Source of the DNA: Jimgerdemannia flammicorona
Taxonomy: Eukaryota
Length of the DNA: 33,432 nt
Reading direction: 5' to 3'
Assembly: GCA_003990765.1 (NCBI GenBank)
Contig: RBNJ01000311.1
Location: forward strand, 1-33,432
The translations under genes were made by a program, and so were the position numbers. This document shows, in pieces, positions 2,051 through 30,925 of the stretch. How positions within the stretch are numbered: position 1 is the first letter of the stretch; each line of letters opens with the position of its first letter. The notes under the pieces were generated by a model, which was not told where the DNA came from, searched no databases, and saw only the letters and a list, made by a program, of their open reading frames with translations.

Positions 2051-3690
2051 AGGATCCAAAGATTTAAAGATGAAATGTATTTCCGTTTATTTATTTTTGC
2101 CTTCCTCAATGCTTTCCAATTCTTTATCTCTGTTCAGTATTTCGTATGAATCTATATATGTTTTCATACTATTCGAAACTTGGCTTCTGATTTGTGATGG
2201 TCCTCTCGTTTATTGTTTTTGGATCTTGTTTATTGCATGACATTCTTATATATGCTCCGTCGCCATCTCGAAGCCAGATATATTGCCAGAGTTTTATGGC
2301 TTTAAAGAAGTGTTCGGGGGGAGGGCGCCTTCGTATGACAGTCATCTTACCTCGATGAACACTGAAATTCTACGGATGGCTTGAGTCGGACTCAGATAAC
2401 TAGGATTGGCCATTACTAGCCACCACTGCTTTGGTACCTTTAAGGACAGCTCCCTCCGAGCAAGATCCTCCGAGGACATTGTTTGTTATTATATATAAAT
2501 AAGCTTCCGTCGTCGCTCGCCGCTCGCCACTCACCGCCAGGCCACCAGCATAGCGAGGACATCTTCCCCAGAGTATTTATGTTCAAAAAGGGCGTCTAAG
2601 AGTACAATTTTCCCTGTAGAATCTTATCGCTTGTCGAGTCCATTCTTGACCGCCTTCTAAGGTCGTGAGGAGACATGGTTCGATGTATGGAGTTTTTATT
2701 TTATTATTTTATTTTATTTTTTACGACGTAAGGGTTGATCCTTGAAGTAATTCATAATGCTTTGATATTTCACTAAAGAGTTGACTGGATGTAACCGAGA
2801 GGTATTTCAACCGAAATATCTACCAATCTTTTAAAAGTTCTCGGTTCAACCCCTGCATCTCGACGCCATCCAGTCATCCGATGTATCACATCAAGCAGAA
2901 ATGTAAGATTCAACTTGACTGGCGCATCCAGAAAAAAAAAAAAAAAAAAAAAAAAACACGACCTTCCTGACTCATCCCCAGTTGTAATTTCATACGCTCC
3001 CGCCATTAACTCAGCATACGAAAGCACACTCTCACCACGTCCTATGAAAAAAAATTGAGAATCTATGTATGCATTTCATTACTATATCTCGATAGAAGGG
3101 TTCTCATGTTGCGTTTTCATAATACATTGTGTGTGGCAAGCCGGAGAACATTAACAATTGTCGAATCCGGAATGGTCGCAAAAACATTTGACAAAGATTA
3201 GGTCATTAATATGAACTCGAACGGTGACATTTGAACCAGATAATACAGATAGACATCCTCCATTCCATCTATATCAATAGTTTTGCTTGCCTAAGATATA
3301 TGTACACAAGCCTACAACCCAAACCCCATTAGCCTGTACCCCGGCGTGATGACTGCCCTGCGTGCGCGCAGCACGCACGCCACAGTCGAAAGATTGGATA
3401 AAAAAACGGAATATGTGGCCTCCGGCAATCCCCGAAATGGTGTGGCGACCGAACGGAGAATATGCGAAGCAAATACAAACGTAAAGGGTGAAAACGATGA
3501 TACGACATGGTGAAGGATTTGACGAGAAACAAGGATAGATAAGAGAAATGAGAAAAATGTCGAACGAGAAAACCCATTACAGGGAACAACCCAAGAAGAA
3601 AAACGGTCCTCCCCCAGTCGCTTTGTATATATAACCAACACGAAATAACCACAACATGTCCACAATCCCTATTCTCACCCGCCCACGCGT

Positions 3691-16000: not shown

Positions 16001-17489
16001 TTCATCTCAATCATAAAAACACACACGACGCTGCCAAGGGGGGTTTTTTTTTTTTTTTTTTTTTTTTTCTTGGTCGCTTCCTATTATCACATACATGGGT
16101 TCATTTCTGCCGAATTTCACACCCAGACTCCTAATACCACCGAACCCAACCTGTTTGCCACAAATTTGCTATTGCTACATTACGTCCGATCAGTTTCCCC
16201 TAATCCTGCCATCGCCAACATGCGTTTTCGCACCAAACGACGAGTAAGATCTGGGCCGCGCTCAAAGAGATGGAACAACGAACTTGCCGAAAAGTTGCTG
16301 TGGGAGGCCGCATCAATCAATATTAATATTATGTAATTGAACAGCGGCTGGGAGGCAATGGTCAATGTTCTAAAGCCAGATGTCGTCCCGTGTGGCATCT
16401 GTAGATATCGGCACGTGTAGCATAATGATGGTAGATTTCAGGTTTTGGACTTGCCGATTTGACATCATCAATCGAAAGGTTGCAAAAACGATAGGAAGGC
16501 CGAAACCGCGCATTGCGAAACGCCCCAAAAGAAATCGTTGCCTTGACCATTTTACTGGACTTTACCGAAAGATTATGACCAACGCCGTGCGTGACAAATA
16601 CGCTCCATCCGCAAGAAAATCTAAAAAGGAAATTTTCTTTAAGATTAAGAACCACTGCGGTTTTTGGCCTCCAAAAGGTCAATATTCCAGAATAAGATGC
16701 GGTACGATACGATCCGTGCAAAGGGGGGGGGGAGGGAGGGAGGACGGGGCGTGCGGCACCAGAATTAACAGGACGCCGAGGGGGGCTCCTGCAAACAAAC
16801 CCTGAGTTCGAAAGGCTCGGAGAGTTGATGAATGAAGCCGACGATTAAGACCAGAATGAATAACTCTCCGAGACTGCGGATGGTCATCTAAAGGAGATCT
16901 ACTAGTAGCGTAAGCAAACGTGGTAAAGATGAGTTGCCGCAGGAGACGACCCACGTCTACACCTCGCCAATACTGCCGGTGCTAGTTACTGCTTCTAAAG
17001 AACCTGTTTGGGGCGGGAAACCGGTATCCAAAATTCACGGCACACCCGGCGAGGAAGAAGGACTACACGACAGCTGCGTATCGTAGAAGAAAGAAGAGAA
17101 CGACGCAACTCTGATATGACAATTATTTTTAGTCCTCCTAGAACATTTCAGTCATCATTACTGTATGTAACACAACTAACCCCGTTCTGGCAAACGGGAA
17201 GGAAAAAGTTGACAGAAATCCATTGCCAGATTTGATTCATGTCCGTTACCCATATAAAGAACTGCGGCACCAGTCAGTTTTCGACGTTCAGATCCTGGCG
17301 GAAATTAATATCTAGCCCTAAATCATTGAATAACCCCTTATTCAATGAATTAGCCTAACCAGGTTAAGTTGGAAATGAATTATCCCATTGACAGTTACAT
17401 CATTGGGCCGGTATGTCAATCCGTGTGTCTTTGATGTAAAGGCTGGTGTTTTACTCATTTAACATCTTCAAACCCTAATAAAATCATTT

Positions 17490-18250
17490 CACTGTTTATA
17501 GTTTAAATAATAACTATTGATTTATTTTAAACATGTATATAAAATAAGTAAAAATAAAAATATAATAAAAATATATAATAAATTATTATTATTTATTTAT
17601 TTATAAAATTTTAGATATAGTTTATATGTATATAGTTAAATTTGACTATAATATAAAGCAAGAGATATAAAACTGAGAGATAGTTATTATAATTTTAGTA
17701 AAAAGTAGGTTTAAATTATTTTATATTTCTTTTCATTTATTTATAAAAAAAAACTCTCAATTAAATATAAAATTTTAATATTATTAAATATTTTTTATTA
17801 AAATAAATAATATTTTAAAGATTTATTTTAAACTTTTGCTAAGATTTCAATAGTATTATAAATATTATATTTTAATATTTAAATTTTATTTGCTTAATAT
17901 ATTAAAGTATTTATATAATTAAAAATATATAATTTTTATTTTAAAGATTAATAGTTAAGATTTATAAATTAAATAAAAATTATAAGACTATTTAATAAAT
18001 AATAATAATAACCTCTCTTTATTATAAAAATTTGTTATTAACTAAAATTTATAAAATTATATAATACTATATTAATTATTATAAATTTACTATATCATAA
18101 TGATTTCTTGAGTCTTAATATAATATTAACTATACTTAAACAACAGAACCTTACATTTGGTTTATTATAAAAAGTCTTTGTTATGAAAACACGCTATTAA
18201 AAATAATTTGCTTTATATACAAGATTAGATGTTAGATAATTATAAACAAG
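17490..18250. other. Extreme AT-rich island, probably a hypermutated repeat relic
   Basis: Almost only A/T; the remaining G and C occur mostly as AG/CT; no ORFs; abrupt compositional borders. Confidence 0.6.
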
Positions 18251-25452: not shown

Positions 25453-27703
25453 ATGGAGCTTTCGTACGTCGCAGACCCCTCCCACCCACCCTCATCCTCA
25501 CTCATCATCCATAAGGACCATCCTTTCAACGCAGAACCGCCACTGCCACAGCTCGTCGAGCACTATGTCACACCCGAACCCACATTCTTTAAACGTAATC
25601 ACGGACCCATCCCGGACATCGATAAGACGAAGCATCGCGTCGAAGTGAAAGGTTTGGTGGCGACGAATTTGAGTCTGGGCGTGGAGGAACTGAGGAGCAG
25701 ATTCGAAAAGGTCGACGTCGTGGCCACTTTAGAGGTTGGTATAGGGTTTGGGTTGTAGGAGAAAAGAGAATGGTACAATGGATGTACTAACTCAAAAGGC
25801 GAATTTGTCTTTCGTGCTGCTCATTACCTTCTCAATCCTTCGTCCATGACTCTTTTTACTTACGCATTACCAGTGCGCTGGCAACCGCCGCGACCATCTC
25901 GACAAAGTCAAAAAGACCAAGGGAGTACGTAATGAGTAAATATCAATACCTTTTCCCCTGTTTTCTACTTCGCGTAACCTGATGTATCCTTTCCAACAGG
26001 TTATTTGGTCGGCTGGCGCAGTTGGTACGGCCTGGTGGACAGGTGCCCGCCTTCGCGACGTCCTGATGGCGGCCGGGGTTCGCACGGATCCGCGCAACCG
26101 CGTGCAGGCCACATGGCATGTTGCATTCGAGGGAGCAGACGAGTGTGAGGAGGAGAAGGACAAAGACGTGGGGAAGAGAGGCTATGGGTCGTCCATTCCA
26201 TTGGAGAAGGCCATGTGAGTATCTACATTGTTCTTTATGATGTGTGTGTGTGTGTGTGAAAGAGATTTTGACGGCCTGCATTTACGGTACGCGCACATGA
26301 TAAAAGACGAGAATAGAAGAAAGATGAAGGCAACGACCCGGGCTTCTAGTGGGATTCATTGCAGTTGCTCTTGTTTTATTTCTTGAGTTTTCCATTCAAG
26401 ATCTATTCTGAAAGGATGGATACTCATGAATATATTCATTTTCGTTCACACACAGGGATCCGCTTGGCGACGTATTGCTCGCCTACGAGGTATGATTACG
26501 CTAGATCGCCTCGTTCATTTGGTGCATAGTGTGGGAGGACCGCAGGTGACGCCACGTGGGAATCCGACGGAGGAAACCAACACAAATCAACACGTCTCTC
26601 TATTAAATTCCCGCCAGATGAATGGAAAGCCACTCTCCCGCCTTCACGGCTATCCTATCCGCGTCGTCGTCCCAGGCTACATTGGCGCTCGCTCAGTTAA
26701 ATGGCTCGCGCGGATCACCATCCAGGCCGAGGAATCAAGGGCGTTCTTCCAGCAGCGGGACTATAAGATTTTGCCCCCTTTTGTAAGTGTTAATATAGGG
26801 TTGGTGAGAAGCAAAAAAAAAAAACGTAATACTATGCAATACTATTAACCAAATCAACCGATTCATTGTCCCTAGGTAACATCTGACGAGGAGGCCGCAG
26901 AATACTGGGACCGTGTGCCCTCAATTGGGGAGACGAACGTGCAGAGCGTGATCTGCGAGCCGGCGAGTGCAGAGGATGTGAGGCCTGGCATGGCTACAGT
27001 ACGCGGGTACGCATTTTCAGGTGAGTTACATTTGTTTGCATCAAGAGCTTTCGTCATGGTTGATATTGGGCTTTGTGTACAATATTACATTTAATTTATC
27101 TGCCTTTTGATTTTATTGACATCTAGGGGGCGGCAGGCTCATCCAGCGAGTTGGTAAATGTTCTTTATTTCCTGCTCTACAATCATTGAATTCTTTAAAG
27201 GGGGGGAGGGGGGATAAAGTTTCTATACTCAAACTCTCATAAATTCCTCCACCAGACCTCTCAATCGATGGTGGCCAGACTTGGCGCTGTGCTGACCTCT
27301 GCCAACCTTCGACCGGCCCGCGTCAGTGGTCATGGTGCCTGTGGCAGGCGCGCGTGCGGCTGGAGAAGGACTCGAGACTTGTGTGTCGGGCGGGTAAGTT
27401 GATTTTCATGGTTATGGGCGTCGTATCATCACACGATGTCCCAAGGTTGTGGAACATATATCTCACATTTCTTTATTCTGGATACGGTGCTCTCCAGTCG
27501 ATTTGGCCGGCAACACACAGCCAGAAGAACCCATGTGGAATTACCGCGGGGTGATGAGTAACGCAAGGTTCCGCATTCCCGATAACAAGGTGCCGGCCCA
27601 AAGTTACGAGAAGAAGGGCAAGAAATTGACACAAACTCAGCCGCCCGTACATATTCAGGCTCATTTGTCGGACAAGAAATCAGGAACAAAAGCCAATTTC
27701 TGA
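25453..27703 (+). CDS. Molybdopterin sulfite oxidase without a cytochrome b5 domain (plant-type), about 9 exons
   Basis: PFNAEPP, FFKRNHGPIP, the Moco cysteine in LE|CAGNRR, YGSSIPL, LLAYE|MNGKPLSRLHGYPIRVVVPGYIGARSVKWL, GYAFS|GGGR, WNYRGVMSN; ATG at 25453, stop at 27701-27703. Confidence 0.92.
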
Positions 27704-28484
27704 AAGCTGTTTCGCTCGTAATGTGCCGTGTTAATGTGAATGAACACAGTCTGTGGTCACTTTGGGTTTACCTTTTTTTTTACTTCTTTTCTTCTATCTC
27801 CTCGGTGATTTGTCGCACGGATACAAACGAGTCCTCCATTTTCTCTGCGTGATTCATCGGACATTTTGCATATTTCTGACCTATACTTCTACAGAATTCC
27901 TGTACAGAGGTGCATTTAATCTACATGAGAACTATATACATGAGAACTATCTGTAACCAACGCTGACTGCTATTTCATAGCAAATATATCGTAGATCAGT
28001 TGGTTTTACACTTCATTTCCATCATGGATGTTTTTTGCTGCAGTATCTCCATAAATTTTCTGGTATATACTGAATCTGAAAAATGCCACTCATGATTTGA
28101 TCGGATGGCTCGAGTTGCACATCACAGTATTGGCCTAGCCACTGCCAAATCTATGCCAACTGGTGCTCCTGGCAAACTTGTGGACCACATGCATTATGGA
28201 CTCAAGTAACAAATGATGATAGTCGAATGCATTACAAAATGTCCCTTATTCTTATAAGGCACCATGCTATTAGCATTCCCATAGAACCTTTCGTCGCTTA
28301 ACAAAGGCCACACCTGCAAGCGGCGCAAAGCGTTGGATCGCGGGCAGGCAAAGACGGATCCCCACCCCGTGCAGAGGTCCCATTGCTGACGTGAGCATGG
28401 TTGCCGAGGCCTTGTGGCCGAGGCCGCGCGAGCACGTTGCCGCGAGCGCGGTTGCTATGAGTGCGGTTATACTGGCTCTCTTAC

Positions 28485-28562
28485 TAGTGTAGCTTTGTTT
28501 GCGTGTAAGCGCGGCCTTGTGTAGTGTAGCTTTGTTTGCGTGAAAGCGCGGTCCTTGTGTAG
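28485..28562. repeat. Two-copy 37/38-bp tandem repeat, preceded by a GC-rich short-repeat tract (about 28400-28470)
   Basis: tagtgtagctttgtttgcgtgtaagcgcggccttgtg / tagtgtagctttgtttgcgtgaaagcgcggtccttgtg. Confidence 0.85.
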
Positions 28563-28624
28563 CATAACTTTATTGGAGCCATTAGCCATCTTTGGTCAGA
28601 AATGTTGGACGCCTATATTGGAAC

Positions 28625-29800
28625 CTAAATTAGGGTACAAGTCCTGCAAGGGAGTAGGCTGACTCTGGTGAGGTAACGAAGGAGAATGTTGCAACACCTT
28701 GGACCCACCTAGGCCATGGTGGAGATATCCACAGCATCTGCATGTACTCTTCTGTATAGAGAATGATCTGACACAATAGGTGCTTGTGCATTTGATGTTA
28801 CCAAAAATAGAAGTGCGACCATGTATACATTGCACGTGCAGTCTTAGAATGAATATGATGCCCTCATCTGACCATCCTCTACATGCAGAACTCTAGTAGG
28901 AGAATAATACAAAAGTTCTCACATAGCCACTATGCGAGCTTATGATAGTAGTCATTGATTAGGCATCAAATTCACTTGCTGTAATCTGTAAATGGTAATT
29001 TTACATATAAGTTTGTATAAGTAAATAAAATACTTCAGCAAAAATGATGCCTGCTTAAATTCAACCTCATGCATGCCAAACCATCCCAAACTGACCTGTA
29101 GTACTTACATTTGTTCACCTTCTCATAGATGCTGTCTCACTTGTTCTGCAGTCTGTCATATATATGGCTCAGTCTGTAGATATGGGCAATATCATTCTTT
29201 CTCCACTCATTACTAGCTCACTCAATTGCTAGCCCACTTGAGTTGTATCTAGTCATAAATTTTTGCACACCAGAATCCAGTATAATAACCCCTGCACTCC
29301 TTTCACCAGACATAGGACCTTGACTCTCAGCCCATACATTGGAATATAGAGATAGAATTTACTAAGATAATTTATTATAAGCTAACTATCATACTCAAGA
29401 CTAGAGAGGAATACAAATTCACCATGTGATTTCTCCCAGTACTTGAAAAGTATTGCAACTGACTGCTGATAGTCCTTTTTAGAATGAAACTTTATTTAAA
29501 ACATCTTGTATTTTGCTGTAAAGTTGAAGGCATACTTATTATAGATACATATCATATAGTATCTCCAGAACTCACTTATCATTATCTTTAAAGTTGAAAG
29601 CATTGAAATACTGTATCTACAGATTCTTTTTATAATATTTTATGCCTTTATTTTGAACTATAATGAGACACTAATTATAAGTCTACTGTATTGTCTCTAT
29701 CTATGCTCAGAGCTTTTCTCACTCATTGTAGATAGGAAAAAGATAGATATATCACATCTTACTCACTAGAGATTTCTCTTCTTTCATCTTTTTCTTAAAG
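28625..29800 (-). pseudogene. tnpB: TnpB/Fanzor2 RNA-guided RuvC nuclease pseudogene
   Basis: N-terminal YIYLFP..E*EKL*A*IETIQ*TYN*CL, then K*VLEILYD, KFHSKKDYQQSVAI and LEYDS*LIINYLSKFYLYIP. RuvC-I GVIILDSGVQKFMTRYNSSG (Asp at about 29275-29277). RuvC-II KLA*WLCENFCIILLLEF (Glu at 28891-28893). Then SKTARAMYTWSHFYF, TEEY, CRCCGYLHHGLGGSKV and NILLRYLT. Confidence 0.9.
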
Positions 29801-29829
29801 GTCTTAGGCTTTTTTGATAATTTCTTATC

Positions 29830-29973
29830 TTTTTTTATAATTAGTAGTAGAACATAATTCATTATGTTATACTATAAATACTATAATGATAGAGAGTAGA
29901 TCTTCTGTAAGCTTACCAGCCTCACTGTTATCAGCATCAATATTAGAACCAAGTATCACAAGTTGAGTCTTAT

Positions 29974-30015
<42 letters not shown>

Positions 30016-30925
30016 ACTTGGACTCTTCCTTTATTACCCCCATCTATCCCATATAAGTACAGTGAACCCACCCCCTATCCAATCCCCCTAGGGGGGCCCC
30101 TCCCCTCTTCTTCTTCTCGATGAAACACCACTCTATCAAAAACAATCCCCACCCTCCTATATACCACTCTATTTACATATCCTTGCTATTAAACCTTACC
30201 ATCGCCCCTCTGAAGGACTCCAACCTATCCACCATCCAGTCATCAGATCCCCCAACAGCTCCTCCCACCTTAAAATCTTCTCCTACAGTGTCATCTGCCA
30301 CTCTTTCTCAAATACAAATAGCCAATGTCCTGCCAATCCCACCCAAACTGCTAATACCCAACTAACAGTGAGCTAACTATTACCCACCCCCCCTACTAGC
30401 CGAGATCTCAAATCCTCCCAGCAATCCCCCTCATCTGCCAGCCTGTGCTCCACACTCAGTCTATTCTCTATTTCAACCCAAAAGTCCCCCAAAATGAGTC
30501 TTATTCTTTGTAAAGATCTACTTTATAAGCTCTAATCCAAAATAACACAGCTGGTCCTTTTGGGTAACTACCACTTCTTCAACTCCTCTTGCATATATGT
30601 ATTCCAAAAGGGCTATAAAACTCCTATATTTCTAGTTAAGCCCTGAACTGATATTGCTGATAATCTCATGGCTTGGGAAATACTTTTGCAGATCAGTGAT
30701 TTATCATTTGAGGTCTCATTGTTGGTGTTCTGAGCTAACTCTGATATAGCAGACCTTGACCTTTTTTGTGATCTGGTTTGTTGGTTGGTTGTCACCAAAA
30801 GCTCTTCACACATTTGTGATAGAGTAGAGTTGTTTGCCACCAGAGATTCTGACAATAGCAATTTTTCCAACATCATATGTCTCTTGTATTTTGCTCGTGC
30901 TTGTGTATGTAGTATTGGTTGTATT
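29830..30925 (-). pseudogene. tnpA: IS607-type TnpA serine recombinase pseudogene (split by the LINE at 29976-30494)
   Basis: SKIQETYDV.GKIAIVRISGGKQLYS (wHTH remnant). KVCYIRVSSEHQ (YxRVSS catalytic-Ser motif, about 30731-30748). EIISNISSGLN*K, VEEVVVTQKDQLCYFGLEL, then, across the LINE, KTQLVILG...KLTEDLLSIIIVF. Confidence 0.9.
29976..30494 (-). mobile_element. 5'-truncated LINE insertion with poly(A) tail and 15-bp TSD
   Basis: Poly(T) at 29976-30009. TGAGTCTTATTCTTT is duplicated at 29964-29978 and 30495-30509. AATAAA on the - strand just before the tail. 3' end similar to 1180-1235. Confidence 0.9.

Follow-up and report, generated by a model that had tools for sequence, protein, structure and literature searches.

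A segment of 110 nt on the minus strand (positions 28986 to 29095) of the analysed stretch of 33,432 nucleotides, here called the window, interrupts a decayed TnpB/Fanzor-like gene and, with a probability of about 85 % judging from comparison with related sequences, derives from a spliceosomal intron. We propose that a U2-type (GT-AG) intron was present in an active ancestor of the element and was passed on to the window copy, which has since decayed. The host spliceosome would excise this intron from the pre-mRNA of any functional copy and join ...KRKRY(R) to LRRVMLRIHKKI..., the helical part that links the RuvC-I aspartate to the remainder of the RuvC domain, and the joined exons would form one restored open frame. 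We infer both that the segment was actually spliced and that the AG at 28986 served as the acceptor; a later deletion of approximately 20 nt, and not a different acceptor, would then be behind the frame that stays unrestored in the window copy.

The gene runs on the minus strand from approximately 30620 down to 28630, and its copy in the window is a pseudogene that is long dead. We counted at least 27 in-frame stops, 20 of them in the 258 codons upstream of the segment and seven in the 117 codons downstream, and the homology switches frame at least twice, with HSPs in two frames. The upstream coding part (29096..29977, minus strand) extends from a WED/HTH-like region through RuvC-I to ...KCKYYR and contains many stops and at least two frameshifts; the codon of the RuvC-I aspartate lies at 29277-29275 within RSAGVIILD (29301-29275). 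The downstream coding part (28630..28985, minus strand) comprises LQQVNL, a deficit of approximately 20 nt, CLINDYYHKLA*WLCEN..., RuvC-II, TEEY, a partial zinc ribbon and NILLRYLT. Here the canonical RuvC-II position is represented by LLLEF (inside 28879-28911), TEEY with the Fanzor-type rearranged glutamate is located at 28752-28747 and NILLRYLT at 28690-28667, and the frame ends at a stop at 28632-28630. The last catalytic motif, DRDxNGARN of RuvC-III, is missing between ...GGSKV and NILLRYLT, and the copy has neither an intact catalytic triad nor an open frame.

The N-terminal part of the pseudogene is split by an insertion of 517 nt (29978..30494, minus strand), which does not belong to the Fanzor element. 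The insertion ends in a 32-nt poly(A) (29978-30009), and exact copies of a 14-nt direct repeat lie on either side of it (29964-29977 and 30495-30508), two matches of this kind being found in 0 of 100 shuffles; by these sequence features it is a non-LTR retroposon or a SINE-like one. The N-terminal piece upstream of it (30495..30620, minus strand) translates as …VL*PFWNTYMQEELKKW*LPKRTS… and can be compared with PFWN...WWLPE of two related loci introduced below (L019 and L006). We considered RIP-like hypermutation as the source of the stops and rejected it, as the changes at 213 conserved sites were not directional (22 C>T plus G>A vs 18 A>G plus T>C); substitutions at these sites amounted to 40 transitions vs 10 transversions. 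No second copy of the element is present within the window. Contigs from two sequencing runs turned out to be diverged relatives and span only positions 28300-28947 of the window, so that none crosses the 110-nt segment.

The segment itself was checked with a script and occupies exactly 110 nt of the minus strand (29095..28986), beginning with GTCAGT and ending with TTTACAG. On its 5′ side the AGG codon for the R of KCKYYR lies at 29097-29095; the exon ends in ...TAC AG and the G of the GT completes the codon, which makes this a phase 2 position. The putative intron thus splits an AG/A arginine codon, in the context TACAG/GTCAGT...TTTACAG/ATTA, and its 5′ end is firm and its 3′ end probable. 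The GC content is 0.32 in the segment vs 0.41 in each coding flank (29096-29330 and 28700-28985). By eye, we noticed no clear CTRAY-type branch point motif near the 3′ end of the segment, and there is no other copy of the segment within the window.

The limits of the homology were determined using phmmer. The query was the translation of 29871..28600 on the minus strand (424 residues, stops read as X), which was searched against 1.84 billion representatives and returned 531 proteins at E<=1e-3, 101 of them at <=1e-10 and two at <=1e-30. In the best matches, the aligned stretches stop at query residue 259-260, the R of KCKYYR, and resume at residues 297-301 (28980 onward). The closest proteins have approximately 8 residues (LRRVMLRI) at the site where the window has 38. 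Both the script and the ends of the phmmer stretches therefore agree with the claim that Fanzor homology breaks at KCKYYR over 110 nt bounded by GT...AG.

The evidence that carries the intron reading comes from related DNA. With an alignment built from the closest proteins, we searched metagenome contigs and recovered 30 loci (L001-L030), in 21 of which both flanking blocks could be located. The original prediction had called for an alignment to homologues, and the outcome bears it out. The site is contiguous in 19 of the 21 loci (...KRYK LRRxMLRIH KKI...), the two blocks being separated by 18-29 coding nt: 27 nt in 15 loci, 29 nt in two, where a 2-nt frameshifting insertion explains the difference, and 18 nt in two that are more distant. 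In the other two loci the site carries extra sequence directly after TACAG, 75 nt in L008 (GTACAT...TCATAG) and 66 nt in L019 (GTAAAA...TTGTAG). The outcomes that the original prediction had named as refuting were not observed: none of the homologues inspected codes across the segment, and both insert-bearing relatives have GT-AG ends.

The inserts of L008 and L019 lie at the same nucleotide and in the same codon phase as the segment in the window, the AG being followed by A+ATC or A+TTG. Both contain in-frame stops and are very poor in GC (0.19 in L008 and 0.09 in L019), and removing them restores a continuous reading frame in either locus. L008 is otherwise open from the start of the contig, approximately 300 codons upstream, to the insert and from there to its natural end, apart from one frameshift. 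As its insert contains stops, this gene could be expressed only if the insert were spliced out. We detected no similarity among the interiors of the three inserts. Spliceosomal introns are classically recognised by a fixed position and phase combined with drifting length and sequence, and because position and phase are shared by the window, L008 and L019 while length and sequence differ, this is the reading we favour for the 110-nt segment.

The 3′ end of the intron (28986 or 28979) is less certain than the 5′ end because of the 20-nt deficit close to it. After removal of 110 nt, the window reads ...YYR/LQQVNL vs ...Y(K/R)/LR(R/H)VML in the relatives, without any gap, and only 0.2 % of 20,000 random 18-mers of local composition score as well as LQQVNL does against LRRVML at this fixed position (p ~0.002). 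A segment of 110 nt is not a whole number of codons, and its removal leaves the downstream homology out of frame; the frame is not restored because approximately 20 nt common to all relatives are missing from the window just after the acceptor, probably 18 nt past it, a deficit of 20 giving the best fit in all eight relatives tested. Due to this deficit, the remaining homology (CLINDYYHKLA...) shifts into the frame quoted in the original prediction. The prediction that homology resumes as I*CLINDYYHKLA*WLCEN was thus right in placing the restart near this point, but the sequence obtained after removal of the 110 nt reads LQQVNL, which is in another frame. It is possible, but unlikely, that the same intron used the AG at 28979 as its acceptor (117 nt, 29095..28979), or that a single deletion took away the original acceptor together with the first ~25 nt of the exon that follows. 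Under both versions, SK*I*CLIND would correspond to HKKIRCLVND, and the bases coding for LRRVMLRI would be absent from the window copy. Removal of 117 nt does keep the downstream homology in frame, and both phmmer and the DNA alignment by MAFFT pair SK*I*C with HKKI(R/C)C, overlapping the same bases as the LQQVNL reading. However, the spliced product would lack nine conserved residues found in every relative, and the peptide match of LQQVNL at its fixed position speaks against this acceptor as well. We compared the two placements of the deficit, 18 nt after the acceptor vs at the acceptor, by counting matches out of 70 in eight relatives. The intron-bearing L019 and L008, in which LQQVNL is aligned with LR(R/H)VML, gave 47 matches for the placement after the acceptor vs 42 and 43, respectively, for the placement at it, and the same preference was seen in L017 (39 vs 36) and in L001 and L003 (41 vs 40 in each). 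On the other side, relatives of the L009 clade gained one to three matches with the deficit at the acceptor (34 vs 36 in L009, 35 vs 38 in L012 and 36 vs 37 in L016). The bases directly following the AG at 28986 are ATT, as in L019, which also speaks against the acceptor at 28979. Taken together, these comparisons make the AG at 28986 the more likely acceptor, with an ambiguous placement of the deficit.

Two further explanations do without an intron in the window copy. It is improbable that the segment is junk inserted or expanded in an already dead pseudogene, with GT and AG at its ends by coincidence. The decay of the copy is indeed severe, one foreign insertion is already present in it, and the frame stays broken when the segment is taken out. 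Yet the segment starts at the very nucleotide at which the inserts of two diverged relatives start, in the same TACAG/GT context and phase, and one of these relatives, L008, is a nearly intact gene with stops in its insert; the segment being single in the window likewise argues against this explanation. Still less probable, to the point of being very improbable, is a coding segment, that is a lineage-specific insertion of 30 residues between RuvC-I and the rest of RuvC in which MRLNLSRHH would correspond to LRRxMLRIH. The unspliced frame is preserved across the segment (110 - 20 = 90, a net gain of 90 nt), and protein alignment by MAFFT as well as tblastn pair MRLNLSRHH with LRRIMFRIH or LRRCMLRIH. 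This pairing is nevertheless no better than chance, as an equally good 9-mer arises in 25 % of 3,000 shuffles of the segment. Moreover, the segment contains a stop in that frame, none of the inspected homologues has extra residues there, and the GC content falls inside the segment.

Two of the related loci, L006 (~3030-3036) and L007 (~1678-1684), share one 2-nt frameshifting insertion, which hits the codons for HKKI a few bases past the intron site. These otherwise open genes are therefore broken nearly at the place where the window copy has its 20-nt deficit.

Regarding its family, the window copy is tied by phmmer to P0001 (CAG8680334.1) with an E-value of 5.5e-34. Searches of Pfam and NCBIfam with its read-through translation, in which stops were read as X and, in one search, one of the two pieces was in the wrong frame, returned 0 families. 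A word-indexed protein search gave no scoring match. At the top of the phmmer matches stand hypothetical proteins from Gigaspora margarita and Diversispora epigaea together with unnamed proteins from metagenomes; next come proteins of Phalansterium and Naegleria labelled in UniRef as transposase or Cas12f1-like TNB domain. The intact relatives L009 and L003 and the proteins P0004 and P0016 match HTH_OrfB_IS605 (PF12323), OrfB_IS605 (PF01385) and Cas12f1-like_TNB (PF07282). Among solved structures, that of mimivirus Fanzor2 comes closest to L009 (PDB 9B0L, E 2.6e-25), and in this alignment D324 corresponds to the D of LDPGV, E467 to the first E of TEEYTSK and D501 to the second D of DRD. Both have a non-acidic residue at the canonical glutamate position, P in L009 and G in the mimivirus protein (ApmFz2). 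According to the parts of PMC11832414 considered here, such a rearranged RuvC glutamate, located ~50 residues C-terminal with a non-acidic residue at the canonical place, is typical of Fanzor. The domain set, the match to 9B0L and the rearranged active site together identify the family, at the level of sequence, as Fanzor2-like, i.e. as genes for TnpB-derived RNA-guided nucleases.

An IS607 recombinase upstream of the gene was also considered (…LTEDLLSIIIVFIV…, matching the N-termini of P0001 and P0002) and was rejected, the match being the Fanzor N-terminal region read in an alternative frame. In the comparisons made here, we saw no IS607-type serine recombinase (TnpA) adjoining the window copy. 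The N-termini of P0001 and P0002 (RHZ81291.1) themselves (…LLSI..VF.V…) correspond to that alternative frame, and P0002 also has a duplicated block; from their sequences, both public models look like mis-predicted decayed Fanzor copies. Right past the Fanzor frame, at 28400-28600 on the minus strand, lies a GC-rich region in which a motif of ~35 nt occurs twice (…caaacaaagctacact…). This region could be a place for a guide RNA or another element.

The family contains other introns as well. In L003, L006, L007 and L019 we found a second putative intron of ~65 nt (GTTTAA...ACTAAC...TTAG) after the N-terminal ...WWLPE(K)/, located at ~617-681 in L003, ~1981-2045 in L006 and ~927-1000 in L019, with an ACTAAC branch point 14 nt before the AG. 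The window (30563-30550, AAAAG/GACC) and the L009 clade lack it to the nucleotide. A third insert with GT...AG ends, ~85 nt long (~1745-1829) and just before RuvC-I, was found in L019 and in no other locus. The two shared sites occur in all four combinations of presence and absence: the window has only the intron in the RuvC region, L003-L007 only the N-terminal one, L019 both and the L009 clade none.

We placed these differences on a tree built from 23 rows and 193 columns with a quick search. The intron-less rows include two well-supported groups, the L009 group (100) and the group of L001-L007 and L017 (97), and the three rows with the RuvC-region intron (window, L008 and L019) fall on unresolved branches between them. 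The intron label changes three times on the tree as drawn, and the well-supported branches force only one change, which is compatible with a single origin. Since the interiors of the inserts are dissimilar, they do not demonstrate common descent of the RuvC-region intron. If all contigs represent genomic DNA, repeated, precise and recent gain or loss of introns, or recombination between copies of the element, may have taken place in Mucoromycota/Glomeromycotina-type fungi, a scenario that we put forward only tentatively. Should it be true, this Fanzor2-like family would be a compact natural system for following intron turnover in a transposon gene. For studies of how mobile genes gain and lose introns, the close relatives that have or lack each of the two or three introns could be of use.

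The surroundings of the element are fungal. A neighbouring sulfite-oxidase-like gene matches a molybdopterin oxidoreductase of Jimgerdemannia flammicorona, with 100 % identity over 161 residues in exon 1 and 95-99 % in the later exons, and a Zn2Cys6 fungal transcription factor is also encoded in the window. From ungapped tblastn segments and a three-frame translation we read the boundaries of two introns in the neighbouring gene, one of 139 nt (25735-25873, GTTGGT...CCAG) and one of 75 nt (25925-25999, GTAAGA...ACAG), and the 110 nt of the segment fit these host intron sizes, as had been predicted. The base composition of the window is 38-61 % GC apart from a 1-kb block at 17001-18000 with 25 % GC. 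With intron-bearing fungal genes flanking the element, and with a poly(A) retroposon and its 14-nt target-site duplication inside it, the claim that the sequence is not bacterial or endosymbiont contamination is supported. The further claim of the original prediction, that the element was adapted to eukaryotic expression, is acceptable for the ancestors of the element and has to be limited to them because the window copy is dead. In the lineage leading to Jimgerdemannia, a TnpB-derived element thus appears to have lived as a eukaryotic gene dependent on the spliceosome, and not as a bacterial or endobacterial contaminant.

The closest relatives of the window copy are CAG8680334.1 of Gigaspora margarita, RHZ81291.1 and RHZ53548.1 of Diversispora epigaea and the loci L001-L030, with 49-56 % identity despite the decay. 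The Gigaspora and Diversispora proteins have the domain order of the family and its ...KRKRY(K/R) LRRVMLRIH KKI... junction, and are annotated only as hypothetical. The Fanzor2 of Acanthamoeba polyphaga mimivirus (ApmFz2, 'TnpB-like protein L79', 9B0L), as described in the sections of PMC11832414 considered, has the rearranged active site in common with L009. It is, however, a viral gene without introns (ApmFNuc is given as such by Jiang et al., in the portion of the article considered), whereas the window copy is fungal and has a probable intron, and of the catalytic triad seen in ApmFz2 the third motif is gone from the window copy.

Introns in Fanzor genes have been reported before. In the part of Jiang et al. 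(2023, Sci Adv, PMC10530073) considered here, Fanzor genes are described as having captured introns at a density similar to that of host genes, and the intron-containing Fanzor1c of Chlamydomonas reinhardtii, CrFNuc, was studied there. Saito et al. (2023, PMC10432273) and Yoon et al. (2023, PMC10711439) use in their main texts neither the word 'intron' nor the names of the fungi discussed above; the supplementary tables of these studies and of Jiang et al. may already include J. flammicorona. Our finding is an ordinary one because Fanzor genes were already known to carry introns. What it adds, well supported by the comparison of sequences, is a further example of the known intron-bearing Fanzors, in a dead copy; its practical value is small, the copy being dead and the phenomenon known. 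It also adds to the published picture of intron acquisition by Fanzors what appears to be an intron-bearing Fanzor2-like lineage from early-diverging fungi. As far as that part of Jiang et al. goes, the Fanzors described there and the window copy have in common a TnpB-derived gene located in a eukaryotic nuclear genome and spliceosomal introns of host-like size. They differ in that CrFNuc is a Fanzor1c of a green alga, whereas the window copy is a Fanzor2-like pseudogene of a Mucoromycota-type fungus, the intron of which is recognised from relatives with vs without the insert and not from gene prediction or RNA.
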